A stretch of DNA of 64,000 bases from an uncultured archaeon. Its GTDB lineage: Archaea; Asgardarchaeota; Hermodarchaeia; Hermodarchaeales; Hermodarchaeaceae. The stretch lies in assembly GCA_964347045.1 (NCBI GenBank), contig CAYFXC010000003.1:70701-134700 (forward strand), written 5' to 3'. The position numbers and the translations under genes are program-made. This document shows positions 6,376 through 25,253 of the stretch, in pieces. Position 1 is the first letter of the stretch. Each line of letters begins with the position of its first letter. A model generated the notes under the pieces. It was not told where the DNA came from and did no database searches. It saw nothing but the letters and a program-made list of their open reading frames with translations.

Positions 6376-6798
6376 ATGACTGAAGCACCTACCGACAAAA
6401 CAAATGATAAGATTCGAGAATGGTCTCGTGAAATCAATCGTGGCATTCTTGAGTTCTGGGTACTCACCTTATTGCGGCAAGAAAGCCTTTATGGAGCGCG
6501 TATCAGCGCTCTTATCGATGACATGTCGGCAGGGCACATTCAAATGGAACCCGGAACCATCTATCCCTTACTCAATCGTCTTGCAGAAAAAGGGTGGATT
6601 GTTGGCAACACCAAAATCCACAGTGAAGGTCGAGGGCCCTTGCGTCGGTACTATCGGTTAACCAAAGATGGTGATCAATTACTCCAAGCAATGATCGACC
6701 ATTACTTTGATACATGTGAAGCCCTCTTCCAATTAATGGCATCTGAGTTCCAGTCTGTCCGTAAACGCTTATCTTCAATAACGGAGGAAATTGATTAA
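6376..6798 (+). CDS. PadR-family transcriptional regulator
   Basis: RGILEFWVLTLL, YG, GTIYPLLNRL..KGWI, RRYYRLT..G. Confidence 0.92.
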   Translation: MTEAPTDKTNDKIREWSREINRGILEFWVLTLLRQESLYGARISALIDDMSAGHIQMEPGTIYPLLNRLAEKGWIVGNTKIHSEGRGPLRRYYRLTKDGDQLLQAMIDHYFDTCEALFQLMASEFQSVRKRLSSITEEID

Positions 6799-9051
6799 AT
6801 GTCAGCAAAAATTCAACTTCGTGTAGTCTCTCTTCCAAGCGATGAAGCTGGACGTGGAATTGTCCGTGTTGACCCCAAGGTCATGGAACGCCTTGGCGTG
6901 ACGTCGGGGGACATAGTTGAGATTACAGGAAAAAAGAATACTGGTGCTCGCGTTTGGCGTGGTCAATCCATTCATGCGGGTTCAGGAAAAATCTTCATGG
7001 ATGGTCTGGTCCGAAGCAACGCTGGTACTGGGATTGGAGAATTTGTCGAAGTCAAACGAATTGATCCATCACCTGCTAAAGGAGTCGAACTTGCACCTGC
7101 ACAACGAGGTGTTCGAATTGTCGCGGAAGGCGATGCCGTAAAACCGAGCTTAAATCAACGACCAGTTGCTCAAGGTGATATTGTTAGTACTGCGGGATCA
7201 GGCACCATTCGGAGTGGCGATTATTCAGTTTTCGAAGCTATGATGCGTGGTGCAGGAGCACCCTTTGCCCTTGGAGAAATCAAGTTCGTGGTTACTAAAA
7301 CCACTCCTAAAGGCATTGTTAAGATTACCGAAGATACGGTTATTCAGATTCAACCCGAAGCCGTCGATATTACTGTAAAAGCTCCCATTGTCACCTACGA
7401 AGATATTGGAGGGCTTGATGAGGCTATTGACCGCGTTCGCGAGATGATTGAACTTCCTTTGAAACACCCGGTGCTCTTTGATCGATTGGGAATTGATCCA
7501 CCAAAAGGAGTCCTACTATTCGGACCACCTGGTACGGGTAAAACTCTTCTAGCACGTGCTGTAGCCAATGAATCTGATGCAACATTCATTTCCATTAATG
7601 GTCCTGAAATTATGAGTAAATTTTATGGCGAATCTGAAAAACGCCTACGGGAACTATTTGATAAAGCATCTGAACGTGCTCCTAGCATCATCTTCATTGA
7701 TGAAATCGACAGCATTGCTCCTAAACGTGAAGAAGTACAAGGGGAAGTAGAACGTCGTGTTGTAGCCCAGCTCCTTGCACTCATGGATGGTCTTCAAGCC
7801 CGAGGCCGAGTCATCGTCATTGCGGCCACTAACCGCCAAGATGCATTAGATCCAGCGTTACGTCGCCCCGGTCGCTTTGACCGCGAAATTGAAATCCCAG
7901 TACCAACACGCACGGGACGCAAGGAAATTCTTCTTATCCACACACGTGGTATGCCCTTAGCTAAAGATGTGAATCTAGATACACTTGCTGATTCCACACA
8001 TGGAATGGTAGGCGCTGATTTGGCTGCAATTGCCCGTGAAGCGGCAATGAATACGTTGCGCCGGATTCTTCCACGAATCAATTTGGATGAGGATCAACCT
8101 CTTCCATCAGATATTATTGAAAGTCTTGAAGTCACAGGTGAAGATTTTGACGAATCATTACGACGTGCAGAACCTTCTGCTCTTCGCGAAGTGTATCTAG
8201 AAATCCCCAAAGTATCATGGGAGGACGTGGGAGGACTAAAAGAAGTAGAAGATGAATTACGCGAAGCTGTTGAGTGGCCTCTAAAATACCCTGCTAAATT
8301 TGAAAAAGTCGGGGTTCAACCACCTAAAGGAATTCTTCTCGTTGGACCACCTGGTGGTGGAAAGACATTACTAGCAAAGGCTGTTGCCACCGAAAGTGAA
8401 GCCAACTTCATTGCCATCCGAGGACCTGAGATTTTCAGCAAATGGGTGGGAGAATCTGAGAAAGGAATTCGGAAAATCTTTCGCAAAGCACGACAAGTTG
8501 CGCCTAGTATAATCTTCTTTGACGAGCTTGATAGCCTTGCTCCCGCAAGAGGTCAATGGCAAGGAAGCCACGTCTATGAATCCGTTCTTAATCAACTCCT
8601 TGCAGAGATGGATGGAATGGAAGAGCTCAAAAACGTCGTTGTAATTGGTGCCACCAATCGACCTGAAATCATTGATAAGGCACTCCTCCGCCCTGGACGC
8701 TTTGACCGAATCATCATGGTCCCAGCACCAGACATGGAAGCTCGGATAGAAATTCTCAAGGTTCATACACGAAAAATGCCCATCGATGACGATGTAGACC
8801 TTATAAAAATCGCTAAGGAAACCGAAGGCTACTCTGGTGCTGATATCGCAAACCTTATCCGTGAAGCTGGCATGTACGCAATTCGAAACGAAGAAAAACT
8901 GACTACTGTCAATGCCAAGCACTTTGAAGCAGCTAGGGCTAAAATCAAACCCAGCATCACTCCTGAAATGCTCAAAGCCTACAAAGATTACATCGACGTG
9001 ATGTCCACAAAACGTGATGCTATCGACACCACGCCTGGTCCTTATACCTAA
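6799..9051 (+). CDS. cdc48: Cdc48/VAT (p97-family) AAA+ ATPase
   Basis: N-domain plus two AAA modules (GPPGTGKT / IIFIDEID / RRPGRFD; GPPGGGKT / IIFFDELD / RPGRFD). Confidence 0.97.
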
Positions 9052-10858: not shown

Positions 10859-11557
10859 TTATCTATCCTTACGATTGAGAATTTCAATTAACCGCGGAGG
10901 AAAATCAGTAATGATCCCATCAACACCGAAATCAATGAACTGATGCATCTCCTCAGGTTCATTTATCACCCACGGATTAACCTTCAACCCCATTCGATGA
11001 GCTATACGAACAAACTGAGCATCAACCAAATGCAACTGAGGATTAATCGCAGAGCAACCCAATCCTTTTGCAACATCGACTGGGTTCTGCAAATCATACT
11101 CATACAAAAGGGCTGTAGCAATTTCATCGTTTAGGTTTCGGATCTTTTTCAATACCGGCTGAATAAAAGAAGAAATCATTATTCGATGAAGCAAATCATA
11201 TTCTTGGATGAGATGTAGAAGTTGTGATTCGATATCGACTATTTTCACATCCAGATTGATTCTTAACTCATCGTATGATCTTACCAACTCAAAGAATTCA
11301 ACCAAGGTAGGAATTCTTTCTGTGTCACTAACTTTCAAACCTTTTAGCTCATCCCAGGTGTGCTCTGCTACCTTACCGACTCCGTTGGAAAGACGTTCCA
11401 ATGAAAAATCATGAATGAGAGCGAGTACCCCATCACTTGAACTACGGACATCACATTCAATACAATCTACTCCCCAAGAAATGGCGGTTTGAAATCCTGT
11501 GAGGGTGTTTTCAAACGGGCCCGTTCCGACTCCTCGATGGGTAATCACCTGAACCAT
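10859..11557 (-). CDS. Glycerophosphodiester phosphodiesterase
   Basis: HRG..ENT, IECDV, HD, IPTL, GVDGIITDFP. Confidence 0.93.
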   Translation of the reverse strand: MVQVITHRGVGTGPFENTLTGFQTAISWGVDCIECDVRSSSDGVLALIHDFSLERLSNGVGKVAEHTWDELKGLKVSDTERIPTLVEFFELVRSYDELRINLDVKIVDIESQLLHLIQEYDLLHRIMISSFIQPVLKKIRNLNDEIATALLYEYDLQNPVDVAKGLGCSAINPQLHLVDAQFVRIAHRMGLKVNPWVINEPEEMHQFIDFGVDGIITDFPPRLIEILNRKDR

Positions 11558-11771
11558 AGGATTACCTCGCGAATAATACGCGCGTTTATTATTTCAAATG
11601 ACTATCAGTTTTAACGCTTATGTGATATTGCTGATATGCAAGATTAAAGGTGCTCCCATTTCAAAGGCCGTCAAATTCAATATAGATTTTTTAGAATATC
11701 GCTGAATGAATATTATTTCGACTGAAAAGTCAAAACTAACGTAATTTCGAATGAAATGGTTGAAAAAACAA

Positions 11772-12167
11772 CTACTCTTCAGTTTTTTCCGCCTGCTCTG
11801 GCTCCTCTGATACTACGAATAAATGCTCATCATTCAAGGTGAAAGCGGCTAATTCAAACTTACCTGTCATGGTTATTGCTTTCTTTGGGCAAACCGCCTC
11901 ACAGGTTCCACACCAAATACAGCGGTCGAAGCGAAATTGGGGCTTCTTTTTGGTTTTAGTCTTCGTGGCTTCAACCATTTCGATGGCTGTTGCAGGGCAG
12001 TCGCGGCTGCAGAGTCCGCAGCCGGTGCATTTTTCGATATCGTGTTCGATTTTACCGCGGAGGCGTTCGGGGCGAACGGCTTCTTGAAAAGGATAGCGAA
12101 TCGTGGCAGTTTTTCGTCTGAGGACGGTGCCAAGAATTTCGCCTTCCATTGCTCCAGGTCGTGGCAT
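11772..12167 (-). CDS. NuoI/MbhN-like 2x[4Fe-4S] subunit of a membrane-bound hydrogenase
   Basis: TIRYPF..RG, CTGCGLCSRDCP, CIWCGTCEAVCP. Confidence 0.9.
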   Translation of the reverse strand: MPRPGAMEGEILGTVLRRKTATIRYPFQEAVRPERLRGKIEHDIEKCTGCGLCSRDCPATAIEMVEATKTKTKKKPQFRFDRCIWCGTCEAVCPKKAITMTGKFELAAFTLNDEHLFVVSEEPEQAEKTEE

Positions 12168-12179
12168 TTTTTTACACTC

Positions 12180-13361
12180 CTAAGGTAAGATGGCGACAAT
12201 CCAGTCCATGATGAATGGCCAGGCTAAAAGGATGCCGACCATGAGGAGGCTGAAGGGAATAACCCATTTCCAGCTATCACGGGCGATTTGGTCAATTCGC
12301 CATCGAGAGAAGAGGGCTTTCATATTGGATAGGATCAAGACAATGGCGGTGGTTTTGACGATGAACCAGAAAGCGTAGTAAATGGCTGCAATTGCAGGAT
12401 TGAGTAATAAGGGCATATTGGTGATAATCCAAGCCATATAATGTCCAGAGTTGATGGTGATCCCATGCACGAAACCACCATTGGCAATGAAGATGAAGAA
12501 GATTTCTGGTCCAAGAGGGCCTCCCAGGAAAACGGCTGTACCCAATGCGGAGGCGAGGAGAACTTCAAAGTTATTGGAGAGTCGGAAGAAGGCAAGTTTC
12601 TTCCCGGAGAATTCGGTTTCCCAACCGCCAACAATTTCAGTTTCAGCAATGGGTGCATCAAAGGGTATGCGTTCGGCTTCTGCTTGTGCAGCGATCAGGA
12701 AGACAATGAAGAGTCCAATGAATGCTGGGTTAAAGATTAGGGGTAACCCAAGGTTTGCTTGGTATACGACGACGCCTGTAAGGCTCAAACTCCCTGCTAC
12801 CATTCCCGCCGCAAACAGTGCGAGGAGTAACGGAATTTCATATGCGAGCATCTGGACGATGCCACGTACTGCTCCAGTAAAGCCAAACCGGTTTGACGAT
12901 GACCAGCCGGCGATAAACAGCATTATGGTGAACATAGTGCTGAAGAAGCCGATCATAAGTAAATCGCCTTCAAAATACATGATGCCCGTTACTGTAAAGA
13001 ATGGCGTCTGAGAAATCGCTATCGGAACTAGCATAAGCACGGAGATGGGAATTGCCAAAGCTAGAATGGGGGTCAGCGTAAAGCCGATTTTATCTGCGGC
13101 TACTGGGGTTACATCCTCTTTAGCCATCAACTTGACAAAATCTGCGAAGGGTTGAAGGATGCCTCGCCAGCCTGTATGTAATGGACCGATGCGGTGGTGT
13201 TGGTCGGCATAGAATTTGCGGTCAATCCATTCAATATAGAAGGCATATCCTGTTAGGAACAGGAACCCAGGAAAGATTATAATCATCAGTAGTGTGACGA
13301 TTGCATTCAATGGTGGGGGTAATAGCACCTGCACATTGCGCACTCTCCAGTGGGTCATCAA
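12180..13361 (-). CDS. NuoH/MbhM-like (complex I subunit 1) membrane subunit
   Basis: DRKF..HRIGP..GILQPFADFVKL.KE, QMLAYEIP, RIPFDAPIAETEIVGG, RWRIDQ. Confidence 0.93.
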   Translation of the reverse strand: MMTHWRVRNVQVLLPPPLNAIVTLLMIIIFPGFLFLTGYAFYIEWIDRKFYADQHHRIGPLHTGWRGILQPFADFVKLMAKEDVTPVAADKIGFTLTPILALAIPISVLMLVPIAISQTPFFTVTGIMYFEGDLLMIGFFSTMFTIMLFIAGWSSSNRFGFTGAVRGIVQMLAYEIPLLLALFAAGMVAGSLSLTGVVVYQANLGLPLIFNPAFIGLFIVFLIAAQAEAERIPFDAPIAETEIVGGWETEFSGKKLAFFRLSNNFEVLLASALGTAVFLGGPLGPEIFFIFIANGGFVHGITINSGHYMAWIITNMPLLLNPAIAAIYYAFWFIVKTTAIVLILSNMKALFSRWRIDQIARDSWKWVIPFSLLMVGILLAWPFIMDWIVAILP

Positions 13362-13552: not shown

Positions 13553-14086
13553 ATGAGTGGTGTTCAAAATTCTCGACTTGAAACGCTTCTCCTCATGGGC
13601 AGTAAAGCCTTCAAAGCTCAGACTTTACCTGTTGAAATTATCACTCGTCTCAACGCGGCCCTGGATCGAAATATGAGAATCATTGTTGGTGAAGCGCCTG
13701 GTGCAAATCATGTCTTCCAAGACTATTTGGCATCACAAAACTACCGCAACGTACTCGTTGGTCATGCACGAAGCATTCGCTACAATGCAGGAAACTGGGA
13801 GACTAAACAATATGGCGACAATGTTCGTGAACGGGAAAAAGGAATGATTTCCGAATGCGATGAAGCCATCATCATCTGGGTCAACAACAGCAGCGTCATC
13901 GCCACCAACCTCGAACGCCTTAAAGAACTCGGCATACCCACCTTTCTCTACGAATATTCTCAATCAACACAAAAAGCCCAAGCAGGTATGCTCGATCCCT
14001 CTCGTACCTATGACCCTAACTACCGCCGGTACAAATACTTCAAACGAAAAAATGCAAGCAACTACGATATGCCCCTAAACGGTTAA
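13553..14086 (+). CDS. Putative SLOG-superfamily (YspA-like) protein
   Basis: LMGSK..., IIVGEAPGAN, RE..MI..CDEAIIIW resembles the SLOG Rossmannoid pattern. Confidence 0.5.
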   Translation: MSGVQNSRLETLLLMGSKAFKAQTLPVEIITRLNAALDRNMRIIVGEAPGANHVFQDYLASQNYRNVLVGHARSIRYNAGNWETKQYGDNVREREKGMISECDEAIIIWVNNSSVIATNLERLKELGIPTFLYEYSQSTQKAQAGMLDPSRTYDPNYRRYKYFKRKNASNYDMPLNG

Positions 14087-14253
14087 TACTGATTTAACTT
14101 TCGAGTATTTTCATGGCTTCGTTTGGTCAAAAACGTCTTTTCATGGTAATGTGAAAGTGTGTTGTTCCATCCCAACCAAAAGTTACTCTTTTTACCGTAA
14201 ATACAGTAAAATTTATATTTAATGGAGTAATTTCGCAAAATGGTGAAAGCCAA

Positions 14254-14952
14254 GTGAAACGTTGGCCTCGAGTAAAAACTGTTGCTATCGCCGCCTTGAT
14301 ATCATTGGCAATTTTTTCTATAACGATTCTCAATTACCCTGAACCGTTGGTCCGTCGATTATCTTGGCTGACTCATCCAGGTGCCTATGCTATCTATACA
14401 CGAGGACGGACCTACGAATTGACCAATGGGTCAATCCGTATGGACGTCATTGACGGCACACCAATTACCACATCTATCCAAGTTTCAACATGGAACGGTT
14501 CACATTGGTGCACTCCAACCATTTTCCATGATCTCCCCATCCATCATTCTACCTCTTTTTGGGTAGCCAATGATCTTCTTGTCGGTGGTAGGCTCAACAA
14601 CCTTATCATTAATCACACTTCGGAAATCCTTGAAATATGGCACGATTATGATGAAGCTGACGAAGGCAACTCCGGACAATACGTTGTAAGTGTCAAATCC
14701 GTCACCCCAGGCCTCAGCCTCTTCGTTGGACGCTTTGCCGTCGAATGCGGATTAGTTACCGGCTGGTACTACCCCGAATTCTACCGCCTATACGAAACCA
14801 ACCTATTCCTCGGCATCTACACCCTCTTTATAGGCTACCCCATCTTCGGAATACTCGTCTTAGCCCCTGTCATCCTCATGATTACCTCAATCCTTCTCAT
14901 CTACGAAGGCTTACGCTACCTCCAACACTTACCACGCAAATCCTTGAAATAA
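14254..14952 (+). CDS. Hypothetical membrane protein
   Basis: N-terminal and C-terminal hydrophobic segments flanking a soluble beta-rich domain. Confidence 0.6.
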   Translation: MKRWPRVKTVAIAALISLAIFSITILNYPEPLVRRLSWLTHPGAYAIYTRGRTYELTNGSIRMDVIDGTPITTSIQVSTWNGSHWCTPTIFHDLPIHHSTSFWVANDLLVGGRLNNLIINHTSEILEIWHDYDEADEGNSGQYVVSVKSVTPGLSLFVGRFAVECGLVTGWYYPEFYRLYETNLFLGIYTLFIGYPIFGILVLAPVILMITSILLIYEGLRYLQHLPRKSLK

Positions 14953-15059
14953 AACTGAATTAAATGAACCATCGATGCTAACTCATCAAAAGAAAATCTA
15001 ATTTTGTAATCACTTGAAAGCGTAGAATCCAAAAACCCTGGAAACCTATAACTTACAGA

Positions 15060-16103
15060 ATGAAATGTCCACTCAAGGATCAAGGACTTGAACGCGGAGC
15101 CTGTCAAACCAGAACCTGTGATGGTCAGTCACAGCCTGCCTGTCAGGTAACCCTTCGAAAAAACAAAAACGGAATGTTCGAACGACTTATACGATCTATG
15201 CATCTCAGTCGACCGGAAGACTACTTTTCCGTATACCAGAGTGGATGCAATCACACGTGTTTGAAATGTCATTCGGCGGAGTTCAGTAAAACAGCAAATG
15301 GCGAATGGATTTCCACACATGAATTAGCCCTCATTTCAAAAGACTATCGTCAAGAAGTAACTGTTTGGGAACCTCGAGAACGGGCAACCATGTGGCACGC
15401 AGGAACCCTTTGTAAGCATTGTGGATCCTGTCGACTCACCGGTCTTCACTCACCCCAATGCCCACAGACACTAGACCCAACGCAAATTACCCGATCTGTC
15501 CAAGGCTATGGTCCTGCACGCAATATCATCGCCTTTACTGGGGGCGACTTAGGTTGTCACCCTGAGTATTACGCTGAAGCAGCCCACGCCATCAAAACCG
15601 CTGCAGGAAACAATATGTGGGTGCTCTTCGAAACTAATGGGTATGCCTTAACACAACCGAATCTACAAATTCTCAAGGACGGTGGTGTCGATGCCTTCTG
15701 GCTCGACATCAAAGCCCACAATCCCAAGATATACAAAAAACTCTGCGGCACCTCCAATAAAACAGTCTTAGACTCCATATCGTTGAGCCATGATGCAGGG
15801 TTTGTGCTTGAAATCCTCACCCTCTACATCCCCGGATGGGTGGAAACCGACCAACACACCGCCATTGCCCAACTCATCGCTGAAACTGACCCCACCATTC
15901 CTACAACACTCCTCGCCTTCTTTCCAACCTACCACCTTTCCCACGAAAAACCTCCTTCTCTTCAAGAAATAGTCCAAAGTGCCCAAGCCATGCAACAACA
16001 AGGCCTAACCAACCTACGTCTAGGCAACATCGGCGTTTTTGTCAAAACCCAGTACGACTACGAATTTCTCACCACAAACTTGACAGACATATCCATCGGG
16101 TGA
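15060..16103 (+). CDS. Radical SAM protein (PFL-activase-like fold) with extra Cys motifs
   Basis: CNHTCLKC, AFTGGD, ETNGY, WLDIKA; extra CKHCGSC. Confidence 0.88.
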   Translation: MKCPLKDQGLERGACQTRTCDGQSQPACQVTLRKNKNGMFERLIRSMHLSRPEDYFSVYQSGCNHTCLKCHSAEFSKTANGEWISTHELALISKDYRQEVTVWEPRERATMWHAGTLCKHCGSCRLTGLHSPQCPQTLDPTQITRSVQGYGPARNIIAFTGGDLGCHPEYYAEAAHAIKTAAGNNMWVLFETNGYALTQPNLQILKDGGVDAFWLDIKAHNPKIYKKLCGTSNKTVLDSISLSHDAGFVLEILTLYIPGWVETDQHTAIAQLIAETDPTIPTTLLAFFPTYHLSHEKPPSLQEIVQSAQAMQQQGLTNLRLGNIGVFVKTQYDYEFLTTNLTDISIG

Positions 16104-16169
16104 AACAAAAAATCTAATCATAGCTATCGGCATACTCGATGTTCACGACCCGATAAGGCCACCAAGCTA

Positions 16170-16276
16170 CTACCGACCCCAAGCTTTTCCTCTTTCAACT
16201 CTTCACGATTCTGCTCCTGAATCCACGTCCATGGCTTCTTCTCCTCCAATCCATAAAAATACCCAAAGATAATTCC
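16170..16276 (-). pseudogene. Decayed duplicate of the 3' end of the hydrogenase large-subunit gene
   Basis: Translates as GIIFGYFYGLEEKKPWTWIQEQNREELK/(frameshift)/GKAWGR*, versus RIILSYPDGKQEEKPWAWFQEKSREERNRIKAWRR* at 21857-21964. Hand count is ~69/108 nt identical with one 1-nt gap. Confidence 0.8.
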
Positions 16277-16397
16277 GTTCAAACTGAACACGTAGCCTAA
16301 TTAGCCATCACCATAAACACCCCCATTTTTCTGCCATAACATTTAACAACTGATGCTAATCTGAAACATCATCATCACAGATTATTAGGGTAAGTCC

Positions 16398-17669
16398 ATG
16401 GTTCACCAAATCTTCAGACGGAATCTCGATAAATGCTGGAATTGTGGGTTTTGTACTGAAACGGTAGATTGTCCGAGTCCCCAAGTATGTATTGGATGCC
16501 AAGCATGCTACTTGGCATGCTATAGAGAAGCTATCGAACCAATTGAACAAACATTGGACAATGAAATTACAATTATGCTGGATGAAAAGCCTGTTACTGT
16601 ACCAAGCCAAGTCACTATTAAAACGGCTCTTGAAACGCTGGGCATCCGATTTTCCCGGTTTCCTGATTCACACGACCTATTTACCCCTTGCCAGACTGGT
16701 GGGTGTTATTCCTGTTTAGTTTCCGTTGATGGTGAAATTCTTCCCTGCTGTCACACACCAGTAAAATCGGGTCAACACATTCGAACAAAGATAGCCGACG
16801 ATTTCGTACCCCGCAGAATTGTTGGATGGTATAGCCCTCACCCAGTTGGCGGGGTTGGAACTCCGTGGAGTGCGAAAAATCTTGGCAGAACCCGGCACTC
16901 ATACATTGAAGTAGCTTGTTTCAGCGCAGGGTGCAACCTTAGATGTAAAACTTGTCAGAACTTTGATACAACCTATAATAGTCGTGCACCAGCCGTCACG
17001 CCCAATGAAGCTGCCGAAATCCTAACGAAACTTCGTCAGAAATCCCATGTCAACCGTCTTGCTATTTCGGGTGGTGAACCGACCCTCAACCGAAAGTGGC
17101 TGATCGAGTTTTTCAAGGAACTCAATCATCTCAACCCAGACCCGAAAGCCCGGTTGCATTTGGACACTAATGCCTCAATTCTGACTCCCGATTACATTGA
17201 TGAACTAATATTGGCAGGTATAACTGACATTGGACCTGATCTGAAAGCCGTTCAGGTTGCTACTTACCAAACAATCACAAATATTTCCGACCCTAATCTA
17301 GCCCAAAAATATCTGGATACATCTTGGGCCGCTGTCAAACATCTGGCCAATCATTATTATCCAAATCAAATCTTCATGGGTGTTGGATTACCTTACAACG
17401 CGGCATTCTTTCCCTCTCAACAACAGAAAGAAACCGAACTTCACCAATGGGGAACCCGACTACATGCCATTGATGATCGAATCCAAGTTTGCATTCTCGA
17501 TTACCGTCCAACCTTCCGACGCCGAGATATCCACCGTCCAACAATTGAAGAAATACGAGCTGTCAAGAAGTTACTCGAAGGAGTAGGACTCCAAACAGTC
17601 ATCGCCCAAACACAACTCGGTCACCTACCTCCCAAACAACCAGCGCCTGATCGTACACTGCCTCGATAG
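16398..17669 (+). CDS. Radical SAM protein with N-terminal 4Fe-4S and 2Fe-2S ferredoxin-like domains
   Basis: CWNCGFC/CIGCQACYLAC, CQTGGCYSC..CC, CNLRCKTC, ISGGEPT, DTNAS. Confidence 0.88.
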   Translation: MVHQIFRRNLDKCWNCGFCTETVDCPSPQVCIGCQACYLACYREAIEPIEQTLDNEITIMLDEKPVTVPSQVTIKTALETLGIRFSRFPDSHDLFTPCQTGGCYSCLVSVDGEILPCCHTPVKSGQHIRTKIADDFVPRRIVGWYSPHPVGGVGTPWSAKNLGRTRHSYIEVACFSAGCNLRCKTCQNFDTTYNSRAPAVTPNEAAEILTKLRQKSHVNRLAISGGEPTLNRKWLIEFFKELNHLNPDPKARLHLDTNASILTPDYIDELILAGITDIGPDLKAVQVATYQTITNISDPNLAQKYLDTSWAAVKHLANHYYPNQIFMGVGLPYNAAFFPSQQQKETELHQWGTRLHAIDDRIQVCILDYRPTFRRRDIHRPTIEEIRAVKKLLEGVGLQTVIAQTQLGHLPPKQPAPDRTLPR

Positions 17670-17782
17670 GGGCGTTCGAACTCACTGATGCATTCTAGCG
17701 AGATGAATGAAATCAGAGGCGCAGATAGACCTCTACCTTTCCAACCATTTAATTAGCTTTTTAGATAAAAGCGAAAAAAGAA

Positions 17783-18184
17783 CTACTCCTCTTTATCAAA
17801 ATTGAGGGAGACCGAATTAATACAATAGCGTAACCCCGTCTTTTCTCTCGGGCCATCATCAAACACATGTCCAAGATGCCCCCCACAATTCTTACATAGG
17901 ACTTCTATTCGTCGCATACCATGCGAAAGATCGAGTTTCTCTTCAATTTTGTCTTTATCCAAGGCCTCATAGAAGCTCGGCCAACCACAACGCGAATCAA
18001 ATTTGGCTTCCGATGAAAAGAGTTCCACACCACACCCCGCACACTTGTAAGTACCCTTCTCTTTATAGTTCCAATACACACCACTAAAAGGTCGTTCTGT
18101 GCCCTTCTCGCGCAATACCCGATACTCTTCTTTTGATAATTTCCTCTTCCACTCTTCTTCGGATAACTCTCTTGCCTTCTTCAT
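17783..18184 (-). CDS. msrB: Peptide-methionine (R)-S-oxide reductase
   Basis: GTERPF, CAGC, CGWPSF, CKNC.GHLGHVF.DGP, RYCINS. Confidence 0.97.
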   Translation of the reverse strand: MKKARELSEEEWKRKLSKEEYRVLREKGTERPFSGVYWNYKEKGTYKCAGCGVELFSSEAKFDSRCGWPSFYEALDKDKIEEKLDLSHGMRRIEVLCKNCGGHLGHVFDDGPREKTGLRYCINSVSLNFDKEE

Positions 18185-18201
18185 TTCAATCTATTATCTA
18201 G

Positions 18202-18591
18202 CAGCGACAAATCACTAATTGCCTTTCGCAATTACTAGCACCAACTGACTCGGAATCCTTCCTCAGCTGGTATGATTCAAGGAGATCCGAACTTGATGAG
18301 TGGTTCTTCGAAAGCCTAGAAAGAATGAAACTAGAAGTAAGCGAATCTGGCTACGGCAATGTGAAACTATCACGACCCTTCGATATTGAATATATACGGC
18401 GATTCTTCCAAGACATGGACGTCTATACAGAAGCCAACCTGGCCAGCATCATCGTGAAAAAGAATAGCAATATCTTCATCTATGCAGAACCAAACGACAG
18501 CCAAAGAATCGCCTTCGGCCCAGTCATGGACTATGAGCTCCTCGTCTTAGTCTTCAAATACATACGACAGGTCATGACCCGCAACGCATAA
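18202..18591 (+). pseudogene. Hypothetical protein, probably 5'-truncated
   Basis: The ATG ORF 18325-18591 continues in frame upstream to 18202 (..SESFLSWYDSRRSELDEWFFESLER) with no start codon, reaching almost to msrB. Confidence 0.4.
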
Positions 18592-18649
18592 AGCCCAAGA
18601 AGATCTAATCCTTCTCTAAGTTCACTTTCAGACATTGGTCAAAGTTCCT

Positions 18650-19615
18650 CTAGGAGAGTTTGGTTTGACGTAGTTTTGTTGAAGGTGTTTCACTCAGTTC
18701 CTCTTCATTCATGAGATTGCTGATAGAAAGGTTGATGTCATCTACCGCGGTGCGATTGAAGGTGACTAGGCCGGCTTCCCAGGATTGTCCTCCGGTTGAT
18801 GTTGGGATGAAATTCATTGATGTGATGAGTGCGATACGTCGATCGATAAGGATAATTTTTGCATGAACCCTGTCATTCTTAATCAAATTTACTCCTGCCT
18901 TCTGGAGCCGGTTATGGCATTTCATTTTTGCAGTCTTATAAACCTCGACTCGGTCAAGTTCTGGTGGACGAGTGATAAGAGTCACGTTTTTACCCTTCTG
19001 GGCTGAAAAACGGATTGTATCACTGAGATCACAATCTTGGACAAAAGGATTTACAACAATAACTTCTGTTTTCGCTAAGTCAATGAGATTTTTAGATAGC
19101 TGATCCAGCTTCGACCCTGTCAGGTAAAAATGCTCTGCGTTCATATCGAATTGAAGTTTTAAAAGATGAATCCACTTCTTGATCCAAGCAATGAGCTCGT
19201 CTTGTTGTTCCTCCTTGAAAATGCCTTGAACAGGTTTCTCAATTTCTTCTTGCGGTTCTTCTTCTAATGGTTGAGTATGTATCTTCAAGAATTGTTGATA
19301 TTCCCTATTAAGCTCAGCGCGAAGTGTGTAGGTCTCATTGGGTTGCTTTGTAATCTCTTTGGCATCAGACAGCTCTTGCAGGACATCATTAAGGGTTTGA
19401 CGTGAGAGGCCTGTAATATCGCGAATTGTTCCCCAGGGAAGCGGACCATATTCCGCAAGAACTCTAATCACCCATCCCTTCCACGTGCCCCAATAGGTTG
19501 GTTTTTCTCCCTCGTGGCTTTTTCCCAGTATGTTTCGCCAGTCCGCAATGATTTTTTCTTTAATCTTCTTCGCGCCTTCAACAATTTGCTTACGTGGACC
19601 CACCATATTCCACAC
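18650..19615 (-). CDS. Winged-helix + phospholipase D (HKD) nuclease-like protein
   Basis: N-terminal HTH (WGTIRDITGLSRQTLNDVLQEL); C-terminal VVNPFV and HAKIILID..TSMN. Confidence 0.75.
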   Translation of the reverse strand: MWNMVGPRKQIVEGAKKIKEKIIADWRNILGKSHEGEKPTYWGTWKGWVIRVLAEYGPLPWGTIRDITGLSRQTLNDVLQELSDAKEITKQPNETYTLRAELNREYQQFLKIHTQPLEEEPQEEIEKPVQGIFKEEQQDELIAWIKKWIHLLKLQFDMNAEHFYLTGSKLDQLSKNLIDLAKTEVIVVNPFVQDCDLSDTIRFSAQKGKNVTLITRPPELDRVEVYKTAKMKCHNRLQKAGVNLIKNDRVHAKIILIDRRIALITSMNFIPTSTGGQSWEAGLVTFNRTAVDDINLSISNLMNEEELSETPSTKLRQTKLS

Positions 19616-19859
19616 ACCTCACATCTAGTACTTTTCTCAACGAAAATACTATAAGAAACTGCTTACAGCCACTTCACACTCTACTGGTAGTTGAAAAATC
19701 ATTAGCTCCTCTCCTTTTTTCGATAAAAGTGTGTTAATGCTCCTCTAATTCTGGAAAACCAGCCGTAACGCATATAAAATAGTCAAAATACGCGCACCAC
19801 TCGCACTCCTCTCATCCGAATTTGGCGTCTTAAATACGCCACTAAGAGGTCACCAGTGG

Positions 19860-21830
19860 ATGACCGATTCCCAAAATCAACCTCAACATGCTCCGCATCC
19901 CCCAACTTCTTTTCTTCCCCGTTCTACACACAGCCCCGAAGCTCAACACCTTCTCAATATCTATGGATTCACCGCTTGGAATACTCTCGAACGCGACCTC
20001 AACCGCCACCCCTATCTTAGACACCGCACTACCTTCCCCCTAGCCTACACACACGCCCTCTGGCACCGTATCCTCACTGCTGCTCGTAATGACGGACACC
20101 TCACCGACACCACCTACAAATCCCTCGAAACTATCACCGGCATCCCCGCTGGACGACTCCGCGACTGGCGTCTCGGCGAAAAAGAACCCCACCTCGAACG
20201 CACTCTCCAAATCCACGAAACCGCCCGACAATACTGGGAACACACCCTCCCCCAAGAAGCCAAACAACACCTCATTGATCCCTCCCTTGTCTACACCACC
20301 TTCCACCCCCTCCTTGACCACACCGAAACACATACTCTCGAAGCCCCTACCACCGGCATCAAAACCCTCTATCACCACAACAAAAACCAACGCCTCATAA
20401 TCGCCGAACTCAAACCCTACCACAAAACCGGACCCCAACAACTCCGCACCATCGCCCACGCAATCATTGAACATCGATCTGAACTCGAACACAAACTCAC
20501 CAAACGGCTAAATCTCCCCAACACCCACGAAGAACTCCGGATCGCCGTCGACCACGGCACCCTCTACCTCTGGCGCAAAACCACCCACCCCGACCACTGG
20601 CTCAACACCTATAGAAACGAACTCCTCTACCTTACACCCAAAATCAAAGAAGACCTCATCAACAAGGCACGACGCCACCTCAACGTCAATACCCAACAAC
20701 TCGGACAACTCCTCGCCCAACTCACCGACCACAAAGGTGAACGAAGCCACACTCCACGAGCCGCACCCTACGAACTCACACACTTCAGTCCCAGTCTCCA
20801 CGGCAACACCCTCCACCTTCTCCTCGACGCAGCCGACCAAACGGTCGATGCAATCAAACCGTATATTACCCAAATCGGACGCATCGCCAACCACGAAAAA
20901 GGTGGAGGTATCCAAAATCCACGTTTCCCCCAAGGCAGAGAACTCGACATATTACGCGCACGTCTTCTTGCTATCGGACTCAGCGATTGTCATATCCACA
21001 AAGACACTCGTGTAATGTCTTATCATGAAAACGATCTAAATCGCATTAGGTATGTGACTAGTTTATTCCGAAGACTAGGGGATTGTACTTACAAACTTGA
21101 ATTCCTCCGGGGAAATCGCACCCGTCTAACCATAACTGCTCCTGTGGGACGGCTTCTCGAATATTGGGGCGTCCCACGCGGCGATAAGCATCTTTACCCT
21201 AATGCTAGATTACCCGAAGTGGTTCGTTTGGGGAAACCCAAAGTGAAGCAAGCCTACCTCGCTGAAGTAATCCCCGAAGATGGATTTTTTGTCAATCGCG
21301 CAGGTGCTTACAAATTTGGGATTAAACGAGCCCAAATTCTCGACGCCGGTTTAAAATCAAAAATTTATGGCTATCCTACAAAAATTACTCCGAAACATAC
21401 AGGTTTGATTAAAAAATATGGAGTAAAGCGAAAACAAGCAATACGGGACAATAGACCACGAAACGAAATAACATTGACAAAAGGGAGGTTAAAAGAATTA
21501 ATCAGAAAAGGAGAAACGCAAAAAGATCAACACATAGCTCAACAATTGGAAGTAATAATCAAGACAAATCCTTCTCAGTTACTTAAAGACGAAAAGGAGC
21601 TGGCAGAAAGCTTAGGGATCAAGATGCAAATGATTTTCAAAGAACTTAAACTCCAAGAATCTGGGCGAGTCTCTACCCTCTGGGAAATCTATACCAAATC
21701 CTCAACAGACACTCTTCAATGGGCAACCCTTGCAGAACCAAGCTCTGGAGAAAAACAGAGTGCAGTGAGAGATTGGATTATCAAATACCAAGGAAAGAAT
21801 TCTATAGATTCTACTAAGGCGGAGCTATAG
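19860..21830 (+). CDS. HTH + LAGLIDADG (DOD) homing-endonuclease-like protein
   Basis: HTH-like YKSLETITGIPAGRLRDWRLG. Two LAGLIDADG-like helices (LLAIGLSDCHI and AYLAEVIPEDGFF), the second preceded by the intein-endonuclease-type K....RLPEVV..G.P.VK linker. No splicing domain. Confidence 0.6.
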   Translation: MTDSQNQPQHAPHPPTSFLPRSTHSPEAQHLLNIYGFTAWNTLERDLNRHPYLRHRTTFPLAYTHALWHRILTAARNDGHLTDTTYKSLETITGIPAGRLRDWRLGEKEPHLERTLQIHETARQYWEHTLPQEAKQHLIDPSLVYTTFHPLLDHTETHTLEAPTTGIKTLYHHNKNQRLIIAELKPYHKTGPQQLRTIAHAIIEHRSELEHKLTKRLNLPNTHEELRIAVDHGTLYLWRKTTHPDHWLNTYRNELLYLTPKIKEDLINKARRHLNVNTQQLGQLLAQLTDHKGERSHTPRAAPYELTHFSPSLHGNTLHLLLDAADQTVDAIKPYITQIGRIANHEKGGGIQNPRFPQGRELDILRARLLAIGLSDCHIHKDTRVMSYHENDLNRIRYVTSLFRRLGDCTYKLEFLRGNRTRLTITAPVGRLLEYWGVPRGDKHLYPNARLPEVVRLGKPKVKQAYLAEVIPEDGFFVNRAGAYKFGIKRAQILDAGLKSKIYGYPTKITPKHTGLIKKYGVKRKQAIRDNRPRNEITLTKGRLKELIRKGETQKDQHIAQQLEVIIKTNPSQLLKDEKELAESLGIKMQMIFKELKLQESGRVSTLWEIYTKSSTDTLQWATLAEPSSGEKQSAVRDWIIKYQGKNSIDSTKAEL

Positions 21831-21856
21831 AAAATGCTGAGAGGCAATCAAGGCAA

Positions 21857-23062
21857 TTAACGGCGCCAAGCTTTGATTCGGTTCCGTTCTTCTCGACTCT
21901 TCTCTTGGAACCATGCCCAGGGCTTCTCTTCTTGCTTCCCATCGGGGTATGAAAGTATAATTCGGTCAGTGCAGGAGAAGCAGGGGTCTATCGAAGCCAG
22001 GGCGATGGGGATGTCGGCGATTTTGCCGCCTTTGAGCATTTCGATGACGCTGGGGATGTTGGCGTAGGTGGGGGCGCGGGCTTTGTGGCGTTCGGGTTTG
22101 TCGGTGCCGTTGCTGACGACGTAGTGGAGGACTTCGCCGCGGGGGGCTTCGAAGGTGCTGAGGGCGTGGCCGGGTGGGATGCGGCGGGGGGTGCGGGTGC
22201 TGATGTCGCCTGTGGGGAGGGTGGTGAGCCAGTGGGTGACGGTGGTGCAGGCGTCGAGGGTTTCGAGCATGCGGACGACGACGCGGCCGGCGACGTCGCA
22301 CATGTCGGAGGTGCGGACTTCCCAGGTGGTGCCGAGGGTTTCTTGGTAGGGGGTGCGGGGTTGGGTGGCGCGGACGTCCCAGTCGATGTTGGAGGCGCGG
22401 GCGGTGGGTCCGGTGGCGCAGAGGGCTTTGCCGACGTCGGTTTTGAGGATGCCGACGCCGATGGCGCGGTCGAGGATCGTTTGTTCGGCTAACACGAGTT
22501 TGATGTAGTGGTTGACGCGGTCTTTGATTTTTTCCAGGCGGTCTACCATGCTGGGGATTTGGCTTTTCTCGATGTCGTGGCGGACGCCGCCGATGATGTT
22601 GTTGGCGTAGTTGACGCGGTTCCCACAGATTTCTTCGATCATGTCCATGCTTAATTCGCGGTCCCGCCAGGAATAATGGAACAGGGTATCCCAGCCGATT
22701 TCGTGGCCGGCTATGCCGAGCCAGAGGATGTGGCTGTGGATGCGGTTGAGCTCGTTCATGATGGCACGAATGTACAAACCCCGTTTGGGAACATCCAAGT
22801 CCAGAATCTCTTCGACGGCTTGAACATATGTTGTGGTGTGGGCTTGAGAGCAAATCCCGCAAATGCGTTCGGCGAGGTAAATGTTTTGGCTAAAACTTCG
22901 ACTTTCAAAGGCTTTTTCGATGCCGCGATGGACATAGCCGATTCGCGCTTCGACGTCGACAACAATTTCTCCGTCGACGGTGATGGTGAAGTTTTCCGGC
23001 TCCTTGAGTGCGGGGTGTTGGGGACCGATGGGGATGGTCATCGTTGTGGGTGGTTTAGCCAT
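21857..23062 (-). CDS. Group 4 (Ech/Mbh-type) [NiFe]-hydrogenase large subunit
   Basis: GPQHP, GYVHRGIEK, L1 motif ERICGIC, EAPRGE, L2 motif DPCFSCTDR, plus a C-terminal extension. Confidence 0.95.
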   Translation of the reverse strand: MAKPPTTMTIPIGPQHPALKEPENFTITVDGEIVVDVEARIGYVHRGIEKAFESRSFSQNIYLAERICGICSQAHTTTYVQAVEEILDLDVPKRGLYIRAIMNELNRIHSHILWLGIAGHEIGWDTLFHYSWRDRELSMDMIEEICGNRVNYANNIIGGVRHDIEKSQIPSMVDRLEKIKDRVNHYIKLVLAEQTILDRAIGVGILKTDVGKALCATGPTARASNIDWDVRATQPRTPYQETLGTTWEVRTSDMCDVAGRVVVRMLETLDACTTVTHWLTTLPTGDISTRTPRRIPPGHALSTFEAPRGEVLHYVVSNGTDKPERHKARAPTYANIPSVIEMLKGGKIADIPIALASIDPCFSCTDRIILSYPDGKQEEKPWAWFQEKSREERNRIKAWRR

Positions 23063-23113
23063 AGTGGGTCAACTACCTGAAAGCTTTCAGTGTAGTCACT
23101 TCATGCCTTTTTC

Positions 23114-23148
23114 TTCCTTAAGAAATTAACCGTCAAACAAAGTTATAC
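23114..23148. repeat. 35-bp direct repeat, copy 1 (hydrogenase upstream region)
   Basis: ttccttaagaaattaaccgtcaaacaaagttatac; 29/35 identical to 24321-24355. Confidence 0.75.
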
Positions 23149-23301
23149 CCGGCTTTATATACCACGGCTGGGCTTTGAAGACCATCAACGAGGCCGAAAT
23201 GATTCCAAACTTTGAGGTTAGATTGCTCTGTAAGAGTGGTTGGATGGGTGTCCCACATTTCTTTGAATCGAGAAAAAGCATGGTATTCAAAATGCAAAAG
23301 A

Positions 23302-24129
23302 TTAGTTGTTTGGTTTTTTAGATAGGCGTGTGTAGCCGTAGATAATGACTAAGGTGATGCTGTAGATGGAGTACAGTATAATGATAGCAAGAAAGTACCA
23401 TTGTAACTGAATGAGACCTAAGATTTCTACGAATAGGGCAAGTGAGAAGTTGAACGAAGCGTGGAAAATAATGGCGCCCAATACGCTGCCATTGGTGTTA
23501 TTTACAATCCATGTGATAATGATGGATATGAACACAATTAATATGATGAAACCTAGAAAATTAAGGAAATCAAATTGTCCCTCCTCAAGTCCAAGTAGCA
23601 GATAAATGGGTAAATGCCAGAATCCCCAGAATACCCCAAGAATGAGGCTTGACCCTAAGGCGTTAAACCGTGATTGCAGGCGTGGTAATGCGAATCCCCG
23701 CCAACCCAGTTCTTCTCCAGTAGCACCAATCACCACACTACCAATTAACCAAAACAAACCAATAATCCCGTCAAAGGGCATATGAGGTCCAGGGATTGGA
23801 TTGCCAAGACCTATGTATAGCCCTATGGTAAGAAGAGCAATCGCGAAAGGAGAAAAAGCTGCAAGATACCAACCAATTCCGATTCTCCATATCCCCATTT
23901 TTCCTACTAATTTCCTGATTCCGTTCCATTCTTTCAGAATTAATAATATCACGATGAATGCGGCAATGCTTGGAGCCCAGGGAGGAAGAAGTTGGAGCAC
24001 AGGAAGTGGTATTACTACCGCAATACCACTTGCCCCAATAAAAAGTACAAAAGTTAGAACAAAGAACCACAAGAGAACAGATCCACTCGAGGATATCCGT
24101 GTTTCAGTGGCGGTCGTTTCAAGTGTCAT
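23302..24129 (-). CDS. CPBP (CAAX/Abi) intramembrane metalloprotease
   Basis: EELGWRG, FWGFWH and HASFN motifs; multi-TM. Confidence 0.92.
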   Translation of the reverse strand: MTLETTATETRISSSGSVLLWFFVLTFVLFIGASGIAVVIPLPVLQLLPPWAPSIAAFIVILLILKEWNGIRKLVGKMGIWRIGIGWYLAAFSPFAIALLTIGLYIGLGNPIPGPHMPFDGIIGLFWLIGSVVIGATGEELGWRGFALPRLQSRFNALGSSLILGVFWGFWHLPIYLLLGLEEGQFDFLNFLGFIILIVFISIIITWIVNNTNGSVLGAIIFHASFNFSLALFVEILGLIQLQWYFLAIIILYSIYSITLVIIYGYTRLSKKPNN

Positions 24130-24320
24130 AATATTTCAAGGCAAAACAATTGAAAGTTATTCAAATACCTTCATAAACCGGCTAGTTCAGAATTTTCTAT
24201 GACAAATCTAACCTTCTTTACAAGTTTTATTACTGTAACCTAGGTGTTGGTCTGAAAAATTTCGAAACGATCTATTGTCTGGCTTTTTGGTACCAAGGTA
24301 ATTTGGATTTGGCCAATGGT

Positions 24321-24355
24321 TTCCCTAAGAAATTAACTGTCAGACTATGATATAC
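24321..24355. repeat. 35-bp direct repeat, copy 2
   Basis: ttccctaagaaattaactgtcagactatgatatac; matches 23114-23148. Confidence 0.75.
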
Positions 24356-24450
24356 TTGATTATTTTTAGGGCGCATTCTGGTCATGAAACCCCTAGAACC
24401 CTTTCTCGTCTTTCTAAAATTTAGATAACGAGTATTTTACTAGTTCATAG

Positions 24451-24486
24451 AAAAAAGATTGACAGGTGCCCCCAAGAGGGGACACC
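24451..24486 (-). terminator. Hairpin plus T-tract after the 24508-24888 gene
   Basis: GGTGcCCCC-aaga-GGGGaCACC (24465-24486), followed on the minus strand by TCTTTTTT. Confidence 0.5.
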
Positions 24487-24507
24487 AATGAAGGAAGTTC
24501 CCTTAAT

Positions 24508-24888
24508 CTACCTAAAAGCGTCTCTGACGAAGAAAAGATAGATGACGATGATGAGCGGGATGGCCACGACGATCAATTGTGAGAAGTCAAGAAAACCAGA
24601 ATTATAGAAACCATAGATGCCAATGATTAGGGCAATAATGTTGTAGAACATTGTGATCATCCAGGCCCACCCTTTCAGACCCCAGAGTCCCCAGAAGAGA
24701 ATAAGACCAATGATTCCCCAGATAATCATGAATGCACCGATTGCCATTAAGATTATCCCAATAATTGGGATGGCTAAGCCAGCCATCAGTGAGAGAGCAC
24801 CAATCGCAAGCATTGCAATTGCGCCAAGTAGTTGTAGAATGGCGATGATAGTTACGCCCGTTGGACGTTCAGCCATTTTTTTCACCAA
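24508..24888 (-). CDS. Small 4-TM archaeal membrane protein (RPxGVTIIA family)
   Basis: RPTGVTIIAIL start, GLWGLKGWAW, IVIYL...VRDAF. Confidence 0.7.
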   Translation of the reverse strand: MVKKMAERPTGVTIIAILQLLGAIAMLAIGALSLMAGLAIPIIGIILMAIGAFMIIWGIIGLILFWGLWGLKGWAWMITMFYNIIALIIGIYGFYNSGFLDFSQLIVVAIPLIIVIYLFFVRDAFR

Positions 24889-25253
24889 TTTAGTTTTGGA
24901 CTATGAATTACCTTACAACAGAAGCTACTTCTGTTATAGAAGTAATTATCCCTCGGTCCTACTATTCTCCTTATAAATTAGGCAGGTCCGTCAAAGGATT
25001 CAAAGAAAAGCTTCTTTTTTTCTTAAACACAAGAGTTTTTCTCACAAATATTTCTCAACGTAGTATTCTGAACACCAACCAATTTGAATTCAACAAGTAA
25101 TACTTGATGCGGATTCAAATGGGGTCCAGAAATCTGAGAAAGACATTTGAGCGATACCTCATTTAATGCGTCTCCCCAGAAGCTTTTGTTAACTCTCAAG
25201 CGTCTTAAATAGGAGATAATCCTAACAGTCTCTAGTCGTGGAGAGTACGAAAT

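Follow-up and report, generated by a model that had tools for sequence, protein, structure and literature searches.

The gene mbhL of an uncultured Asgard archaeon (Asgardarchaeota, Hermodarchaeaceae), which encodes the large subunit of a [NiFe] hydrogenase, is followed on the same strand by a decayed copy of its own 3' end. The gene next to mbhL, g656, is convergent with it and codes for a free-standing protein of 656 amino acids (aa), presumed to be a homing endonuclease. These genes lie in a stretch of 64,000 nt (the window; positions 70,701 to 134,700 of contig CAYFXC010000003.1 in the GenBank assembly GCA_964347045.1, a metagenome-assembled genome [MAG] of 2.58 Mb in 83 contigs), to which the coordinates below refer unless another locus is named. 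Taken together, related genomes and other genes with the same layout suggest that the g656 family is probably an archaeal analog of the yeast WHO ("weird HO") elements: sensitive alleles of a host gene would be cut, and repair would install a new gene end (tail) along with the endonuclease gene. The 107-nt copy, which we call a relic, would then be the old mbhL 3' end, displaced downstream when a homing-type element replaced the tail.

A Decayed Copy of the mbhL Tail in the Window

The host gene mbhL (21857–23062, minus strand) encodes 401 aa and matches the Pfam families Complex1_49kDa (1.5e-56) and NiFeSe_Hases (2e-18). Its sequence carries both Ni-binding motifs, RICGICSQAH on the N-terminal side and DPCFSCTDR on the C-terminal side, the codons of the latter (residues 359–367) lying at 21962–21988 (minus strand). 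The NuoD-like fold family and both Ni-binding Cys pairs (RxCGxCxxxH ... DPCxxCxxR) place the predicted protein among the large subunits of group-4 membrane-bound [NiFe] hydrogenases, and orthologs with 81–87% identity occur in 13 of the 14 genus members. The part that is duplicated is the C-terminal extension, made of Arg367, 34 further codons and the stop codon (21857–21964, minus strand).

The relic lies at 16170–16277 (minus strand) in the orientation of mbhL. It corresponds to nt 59–167 of a tail profile, contains one frameshift and has its own stop codon at its end. Alignment with the intact tail gives 71 identical columns out of 109 (65%; z = 9.2, 2000 shuffles), the top local match to the mbhL tail within the whole window. 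When both strands of the 64-kb window were searched with a DNA profile to which the intact tails of ten other genomes, and no others, had contributed, the relic was recovered at 16171–16277 (minus strand) with E = 1.4e-12; the same search gave no second relic, since only one match had E < 1 and the next one had E of about 10. Chance similarity is ruled out by this E-value and by the shuffle score. Read in one frame, the relic gives GIIFGYFYGLEEKKPWTWIQEQNREE, to be compared with RIILSYPDGKQEEKPWAWFQEKSREE in the intact tail; a 1-nt deletion shifts KAWGR and the following stop (KAWRR and stop in the intact tail) to another frame, the stop being retained. The sequence-only reading from which this analysis started had described a frameshifted copy of the tail in the same orientation as the gene; the deletion justifies the word frameshifted, and both the orientation and the significance of the match are confirmed. 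It had also placed the start of similarity at the Arg of DPCFSCTDR. This is true of the window, where similarity begins at profile nt 59–60, the Arg codon itself, but not of the relatives, where relic starts are spread over profile nt 33–107. No run of identity between relic and tail is longer than about 9 nt. At 65% identity the relic is old, and we read it as the mark of a former mbhL gene end.

Relics Downstream of mbhL in Related Genomes

We retrieved and oriented 13 mbhL loci, all from MAGs, in which contig ends cut many loci; relic counts refer to the ten genomes with at least 0.9 kb of downstream DNA. Profile searches revealed 21 extra tail copies downstream of mbhL in eight of these ten, namely four each in G011, G012, and G013, three each in G003 and G008, and one each in the window, G014, and G017. 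The last of these genomes belongs to a different genus, and its relic resembles the tail type of that genus. Each of the 21 relics has the orientation of the gene and extends as far as the stop codon, and many hold stops or frameshifts. Full relics start at profile nt 33–59, that is, within or just past the Ni-motif codons, and short relics at profile nt 70–107, with a common break point between TGG and GCNTGGTT. A short relic sits just upstream of the g656 start codon in G003, G011, and G012; four open reading frames (ORFs) separate the two in G013, and in G014 the short relic is present and g656 was not found. The 5' limits of the short relics in these five genomes coincide with a hypervariable segment of the tail, residues 370–380 (21923–21955, minus strand), which is among the two most variable 10-aa windows of MbhL (0.40 vs. 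a mean of 0.126 in ten orthologs). Such hypervariability is as expected of a contested target site, and the segment is a candidate recognition or cleavage region for the endonuclease.

Unrelated genes lie among the relics; they code for a flavodoxin, a 453-aa protein, a proteasome-alpha-like protein, an F420-type oxidoreductase, a peptidase, and a tetratricopeptide repeat (TPR)-nitrilase, and Pfam and NCBIfam searches detected no recombinase among the genes located between relics in the relatives. The flanks are shuffled: X–relic–flavodoxin in G003, cl17–relic–flavodoxin in G008 and G013, and X–relic–TPR-nitrilase in G008. Any one relic has different neighbor genes in different genomes, so that relics act like points of recombination. 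Their consensus has no secondary structure (alifold energy 0, no better than shuffled columns), and they are thus not attC-like.

An empty site is also available. In G002, mbhL is directly followed by msrB, without relic and without g656; in the closely related G006, the mbhL–msrB spacer contains in addition a cleanly delimited insert of 4.0 kb, made of g656 and three ORFs. A short repeat resembling a target-site duplication was looked for at the G006 insertion and was too weak to call. In G011, the order is g656, short relic, msrB, and relic.

g656 Has the Fold of a Two-Motif LAGLIDADG Endonuclease

The g656 gene (19860–21830, plus strand) stops 26 bp from the mbhL stop codon. Its product consists of a helical, helix-turn-helix (HTH)-containing N-terminal half (1–345) and a C-terminal double-LAGLIDADG domain (about 355–650). 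Database searches found 22 homologs, with source names Hodarchaeota, Promethearchaeota, Hermodarchaeia, and Thorarchaeota. The AlphaFold2 model computed from the homolog alignment (pLDDT 86, pTM 0.78) shows the succession alpha-beta-beta-alpha-beta-beta-alpha twice, at residues 359–435 and 460–550. Foldseek matched the C-terminal half with probability 1.0 to I-Tsp061I, I-DmoI (TM 0.64), PI-SceI, and endonuclease domains of inteins (TliVMA); WhiA was also among the matches. The two LAGLIDADG motifs read LIAIALSD(G/C)HI and YLAEVIPEDG(Y/F)F, and their helices end in D376 and D474, which we call catalytic from their position at the helix ends rather than from residue-level superposition. Within a 60-homolog set (25–60% identity), D376, D/E474, and K/R443 are each conserved in 59 of 59 sequences. 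By its core fold and its metal-binding-type Asp/Glu residues, g656 is thus predicted, with confidence as to the fold, to be a two-motif monomeric LAGLIDADG homing endonuclease. A sequence search of the PDB gave no match. The N-terminal 345 aa, although confidently folded in the model, had no significant Foldseek match in the PDB and no recombinase fold, the protein atlas offering low-score leads only, and Pfam searches detected neither a zinc-finger nor a Hint (intein) family in the protein. The fold and conserved acids bear out the earlier description of the neighbor as an HTH-LAGLIDADG-like gene, and its 26-bp distance from the intact stop was likewise confirmed.

The g656 Family at the Ends of Other Conserved Genes

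A profile of the g656 family matched 63 of 400 genomes of the phylum, nearly all in two families, in a scan that scored at most three members per genome. The family is often multicopy, g656 itself being single copy in the window genome, and its members are very often located at contig ends. We retrieved 59 further loci, and in 40 of them a convergent gene ends within 200 nt of the 3' end of the homolog. These neighbors encode a group-3-type [NiFe] hydrogenase large subunit, AdoHcyase (at least six loci), ornithine/aspartate carbamoyltransferase, cysteine desulfurase, Lsm, ScpB, ribosomal protein S19, MTHFR, and a ChsH2-like protein. The identified neighbors are conserved housekeeping genes, and at least ten host genes are represented. 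Homologs cluster by neighbor gene (six at mbhL, four at AdoHcyase, three at Lsm).

Several of these host genes have duplicated ends. The group-3-type hydrogenase has one to three relics that start in the codons of its CLSCAVH Ni-motif and end at the stop; the ornithine carbamoyltransferase (OTCase) gene has a 34-aa tail copy with 94% identity that begins directly after HCLPAHR; and the cysteine desulfurase gene has a 60-aa tail copy with 53% identity. At uvrB, it is the 5' end rather than the 3' end that is duplicated (93 aa, 76% identity). In this locus (L037, G004:C119), the first ~100 codons are duplicated around a family member (6438–6788 and 11059–13071), and the same trick seems to work at gene starts. 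More generally, a copy of the 450 nt adjoining the 3' end of the homolog was found beyond its 5' end at 9 of 45 loci, compared with 0 of 33 controls, for which a segment 2 kb further away was used. The check proposed with the sequence-only reading, namely whether homologs also sit beside duplicated gene ends, was thus answered positively at the second hydrogenase, OTCase, cysteine desulfurase, AdoHcyase, and uvrB; empty-site alleles, which it had also proposed to look for, exist both at mbhL (G002 vs. G006) and at AdoHcyase (G389 vs. G390).

The AdoHcyase pair has the look of a fresh insertion. In G390, AdoHcyase is followed by the homolog and then by a second copy of the last 105 nt (35 codons) of AdoHcyase; the two repeats are identical up to the stop codon and flank a 2.5-kb insert. 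G389, from the same genus, has the empty site, so that alleles with and without the endonuclease gene occur within one genus. The G390 insertion, homolog alone plus the 105-nt repeat, amounts to 2.66 kb, and the downstream DNA of the two genomes is collinear over more than 800 nt. Synonymous differences between G389 and G390 lie right at the repeat boundary. Because the insert codes only for the LAGLIDADG protein, that protein must be the mobility function if the element is autonomous. No homology was found between the element ends of different AdoHcyase-type copies. At mbhL and at AdoHcyase alike, what varies between close relatives is the presence or absence of an insert at a fixed site on the border of a conserved host gene, as for a homing element.

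Proposed Mechanism and Alternative Explanations

We propose that the drivers are free-standing two-domain LAGLIDADG endonuclease genes with an HTH-rich N-terminal half, each lineage residing directly behind, and convergent to, one conserved host gene. The enzyme would cut sensitive host alleles in the tail-coding region, in mbhL just 3' of the Ni-motif at about codons 368–381. The break would be repaired from a donor chromosome, with the gene body as left arm and the stranded old-tail fragment beyond the endonuclease gene as right arm; the recipient would gain a new (resistant) tail, the endonuclease gene, and all DNA between the arms, and its former tail would stay behind, as a relic, at a more downstream position. 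Over repeated rounds, and with exchange among relics as well, arrays of passenger genes with relics between them would be built up and reshuffled. The endonuclease gene would be lost again if a relic recombined with the intact tail; the arrays of G008, which lack g656, and the G014 locus, where a short relic was found but no g656, would be explained in this way. What the window has kept would be a single endonuclease gene together with four other genes and one old relic. We infer DNA cleavage, its site, the resistance of alleles, and the repair route by analogy with the WHO elements, whose scheme every structural feature seen here fits. The variable MbhL segment 370–380 at the break points of the short relics and the synonymous changes at the G389/G390 repeat boundary lend weak support to the idea of an arms race over the site of cleavage. 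The geometry envisaged in the sequence-only reading, an element that enters the 3' end of a gene and supplies a replacement tail, gains support from the relics of the relatives and of other genes.

Several observations weigh against the mechanism that we favor. In the window, no relic directly adjoins g656, and in G006 g656 lies in the spacer without visible duplication. The same holds for an AdoHcyase lineage in genus g79, located ~45 nt past the stop and beyond a terminator-like hairpin. Between full-length relics there are no endonuclease genes or pseudogenes, unlike in WHO clusters; a six-frame profile search of the 13 mbhL loci gave at most one endonuclease copy in each and no fragments. 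When the alignment was judged by eye, no systematic difference in tail sequence separated g656-bearing from g656-lacking genomes, and G008 (without g656) and G013 (with g656) are identical over the Ni-motif codons so compared. As the two G390 repeats are identical, resistance cannot lie inside them, and since a perfect duplication keeps both junctions of the empty allele, the classical protection, by splitting of the recognition site, cannot apply either. Finally, g656 has no match to the Pfam LAGLIDADG families, none being detected in Pfam and NCBIfam at E ≤ 0.01 (LAGLIDADG_1/2/3, Hom_end), which points to a highly divergent, uncatalogued lineage, and other roles are suggested by some paralogs with extra HTH domains whose operons also encode HerA-like ATPases. 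These homologs (L038, L042, L048, L049, L055) are 1240–1470 aa long, with many extra HTH domains, and share their operon with a HerA-like ATPase of ~1020 aa.

The retained junctions of the G390 duplication, where by this reasoning simple target disruption cannot protect the filled allele, are a point in favor of Campbell-type or site-specific integration. Circular cassettes bearing a 100–130-nt gene-end copy would then enter the chromosomal tail by a single crossover, in an integron- or island-like manner with a recombinase acting in trans, or through host homologous recombination merely stimulated by the endonuclease, and each integration would leave one complete and one 5'-truncated tail. 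The identical 105-nt repeats around the 2.5-kb insert do end at the stop codon, like attL and attR; most cassettes lack an endonuclease gene; and the shuffled relic flanks are what recombination sites would produce. However, searches of the window interval and of the ~40 cassette and neighbor ORFs tested yielded no family of integrases, transposases, or other recombinases, the G390 insert codes for nothing but the LAGLIDADG protein, and the N-terminal half of g656 shows no recombinase fold. Moreover, the 5' limits of the relics vary over profile nt 33–107 without a conserved core, and the lack of a consensus structure sets them apart from attC sites. We consider this explanation rather unlikely. 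A different doubt concerns g656 itself, which might be a domesticated, WhiA-like LAGLIDADG DNA-binding protein (a regulator or partner) residing in a recombination-prone spacer, the relics having arisen by illegitimate recombination. WhiA is among its fold matches, the gene is single copy in the window genome with no relic adjoining it, HerA-like ATPase operons harbor HTH-rich paralogs, and genomes also differ in the slot upstream of mbhL. On the other hand, the catalytic-position acids and the Lys are invariant in 59 of 59 homologs of g656, and WhiA is not known to have kept these residues. A spacer prone to random exchange would also leave unexplained why presence/absence polymorphism falls exactly at gene ends, why the family forms target-specific clades, why duplicated ends accompany 9 of 45 members and 0 of 33 controls, and why orientation and end point (the stop codon) are the same in all 21 relics; domestication of this kind is improbable in our view. 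We attach very little credence to the possibility that the relic is the last remnant of a tandemly duplicated second hydrogenase operon, otherwise deleted. The genome does contain several large-subunit paralogs and pseudogenes, but relics never reach upstream of the Ni-motif codons, up to four of them follow each other with unrelated genes between, and the same pattern recurs at unrelated genes, and a decayed second operon was rejected on these three grounds.

Comparison with Known Elements

WHO elements are found at the aldolase gene FBA1 of Torulaspora and Lachancea yeasts, where each combines a LAGLIDADG endonuclease gene with an alternative version of the FBA1 3' part; the enzyme cuts sensitive FBA1 alleles, and the FBA1 3' fragment stranded beyond the endonuclease gene serves as second homology arm in homing, resistance resulting from allelic differences and old fragments being left behind (Coughlan et al. 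2020, eLife, PMC7282813; Osborne et al. 2026, bioRxiv 10.64898/2026.08.13.744650). The g656 family shares with them a LAGLIDADG endonuclease fused to a separate DNA-binding module and encoded directly downstream of a conserved host gene, whose 3' end is replaced in the yeasts, and apparently here as well, with no splicing out. In both systems, old 3' fragments, some with frameshifts or stops, pile up downstream of the endonuclease gene (here at mbhL, the second hydrogenase, OTCase, cysteine desulfurase, and AdoHcyase), some members reside at other genes with duplicated 3' ends (WHO10 among the WHO elements), the endonucleases diverge fast, and the target segment is variable. The differences are also marked. 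The g656 family is archaeal, whereas WHO elements are eukaryotic; the extra half of g656 is N-terminal, HTH-rich, and helical instead of a C-terminal zinc finger, and no Hint region is recognized; the duplicated piece measures about 60–180 nt instead of about 400 bp; each mbhL locus has at most one endonuclease gene and no pseudogene cluster; the arrays described here carry intact unrelated passenger genes; and the family uses at least ten host genes, once at a 5' end. The resemblance is that of a work-alike, based on layout, and in the archaeal case we infer cleavage and allele resistance.

C-terminal duplications of cob and atp6 with LAGLIDADG or GIY-YIG ORFs between gene and copy have been described in fungal mitochondria (PMC6279837), where mobile endonuclease ORFs supply the gene with a new C-terminus. 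As with g656, a free-standing endonuclease ORF separates a conserved gene from a copy of part of its C-terminal end; unlike g656, these ORFs are organellar, lack cargo arrays, and encode ordinary Pfam-recognizable endonucleases. A hybrid atp6 gene of Allomyces was reportedly described by Paquin et al. in 1994. T4-like and other phages possess free-standing homing endonucleases (seg, mob) that perform "intronless homing," with nuclease genes at recombination boundaries (PMC2988022, PMC10055350). Such genes reportedly lie in the spacer beside a conserved gene that is thought to be cut, with co-conversion of flanks and protection by target polymorphism; phage enzymes are mostly of the GIY-YIG or HNH type, unlike g656, and no replacement gene ends or stacked relics are known to have been described for them.

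Among Asgard archaea, a mobile element with cargo is HeimM2 of Ca. Heimdallarchaeum, for which co-option of a homing-endonuclease-like gene in site-specific integration has been proposed (Wu et al. 2022, PMC8813620). The likeness lies in the Asgard host, the cargo, and the presence of such a gene; however, HeimM2 is inserted between 16S rRNA and tRNA genes, and no duplicated gene end is reported for it. Our literature search on Asgard archaea with LAGLIDADG and on free-standing archaeal LAGLIDADG genes returned no account of g656-type elements, HeimM2 being the nearest Asgard report. Integrons and integrase-borne islands provide another parallel, with a cassette array whose repeated site stands beside one fixed functional site and with stacked partial 3' gene ends. 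Yet neither the IntI-type tyrosine recombinase and folded attC-like sites of integrons, nor a crossover core that stays constant, nor the integrase of such islands was detected in the mbhL arrays; exact repeats occur only in G390, around an insert containing just the LAGLIDADG gene.

The archaeal host, the HTH half, the number of host genes, the intact passengers, and the one 5'-end case are thus new, and the kind of element is already known from WHO and from the fungal mitochondrial ORFs. To our knowledge, gene-end-replacing homing elements have been shown by experiment only in a few yeasts and seen descriptively in fungal mitochondria. The yeast elements gave rise to the HO mating-type endonuclease. 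That the same logic is met in Asgard archaea, of all archaea the closest to eukaryotes, with an unrelated DNA-binding half, at least ten hosts, and intact passengers, suggests that the strategy is general and that it is either ancient or readily invented anew. Through it, genes could flow into "safe harbors" behind essential genes of Asgard archaea with no integrase involved. The family would also be a source of natural meganuclease candidates, with the duplicated gene ends pointing to their probable targets. Tail-swap elements of this kind would also explain broken-looking hydrogenase operons and the many contigs that end exactly at such genes. We put forward only tentatively the wider proposal that Asgard archaea hold a large uncatalogued family of HTH-LAGLIDADG tail-swap elements, which would form a third kind of homing beside introns and inteins, independent of WHO/HO, and would build, by recurrent repair of breaks at conserved gene ends, integron-like arrays that capture intact passengers and exchange them between species without an integrase.

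The Interval between mbhL and mbhM

From mbhL onward, the window contains g656, a gene for a winged helix-turn-helix (wHTH)-PLD protein, an 88-aa ORF, msrB, a radical SAM gene, the relic, three more genes, and mbhM. The wHTH protein of the PLD family (nuclease-like, 321 aa; 18650–19615, minus strand; Pfam PLDc_2 7.4e-14) is treated as a passenger; it forms a singleton cluster and is unique to the window genome among the genomes compared. It has weak, below-cutoff similarity to the defense-associated PLD nucleases DrmC, DpdK, and NucT, and may be a defense-type passenger. The 88-aa ORF (18325–18591, plus strand) has no family match. Also unique to the window genome in this comparison are the other passenger, a 423-aa radical SAM protein with 2Fe-2S and 4Fe-4S domains (16398–17669, plus strand), and the three genes between the relic and mbhM (13553–16103, plus strand), which code for proteins of 177 aa, 232 aa, and 347 aa, the last being radical-SAM activase-like. 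The msrB gene (SelR; 17783–18184, minus strand; Pfam SelR 1.7e-54) behaves differently: copies as conserved as the flanking core genes (82–88% identity) are located between mbhL and either mbhM or downstream genes in G002, G003, G006, G008, G011, and G013. By this distribution, msrB is a resident of the mbhL–mbhM interval in all relatives and not demonstrable cargo.

No integrase or transposase family was matched among the ORFs from 13553 to 23062 (Pfam, NCBIfam), in agreement with the sequence-only reading. The same reading had taken 16170–21964 as one cargo-carrying element, a view that the comparison does not support: msrB is resident in the relatives, and the endonuclease module is separable from the rest, as the G006/G002 indel and the gene order in G011 demonstrate. 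Because msrB is resident, the PLD, radical SAM, and other genes are unique to this genome, and g656 has no adjacent relic, the 5.7-kb interval is better read as a mosaic that several events appear to have left. We read g656 as the current or latest endonuclease at mbhL in the window.

The usual operon partners of mbhL, mbhM (NuoH-like; 12180–13361, minus strand; Pfam NADHdh 3.7e-75) and mbhN (2x4Fe-4S; 11772–12167, minus strand; Fer4 families), are on the same strand, 8.5 kb away in the window and 2.4–6.9 kb after mbhL in G002, G003, and G006. Neither the small subunit nor mbhK is adjacent to mbhL (21857–23062). Four NuoB-like small-subunit genes lie on other contigs of the genome (G000 contigs C4, C5, C15, and C52), a HycI-type maturation protease gene is located elsewhere (C1:240266), and the Mbh-type module is scattered across the genome. 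The slot between LonB and mbhL (23063–25253) is likewise variable among genus members. It contains an Rce1-like protease in the window genome, G001, and G008, a radical SAM gene in G004 and G013, and a catalase fragment in G006 (with the same gene cluster in G014), and it is empty in G002 and G003.

Two further observations concern the loci of the g656 family. Contigs often end within a few hundred bases of family genes or at host-gene stops: G390:C69 ends at the AdoHcyase stop, and G000:C15 (L106, G000:C15:45000-48225) ends 215 bp past the stop of the group-3 hydrogenase; repeated gene ends probably break assemblies. In L046 (G372:C4, oriented about 7230–7270) and at least 12 more genomes of family f6, AdoHcyase is alignable only to residue ~350–352 of 418. 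In L046, a ~35-nt insert with the inverted repeat AGAGCA..TGCTCT and a stop codon parts the codons for GHPS from those for VMDLSF, and it may be a small intron-like insert, possibly of the bulge-helix-bulge type, or a conserved frameshift.

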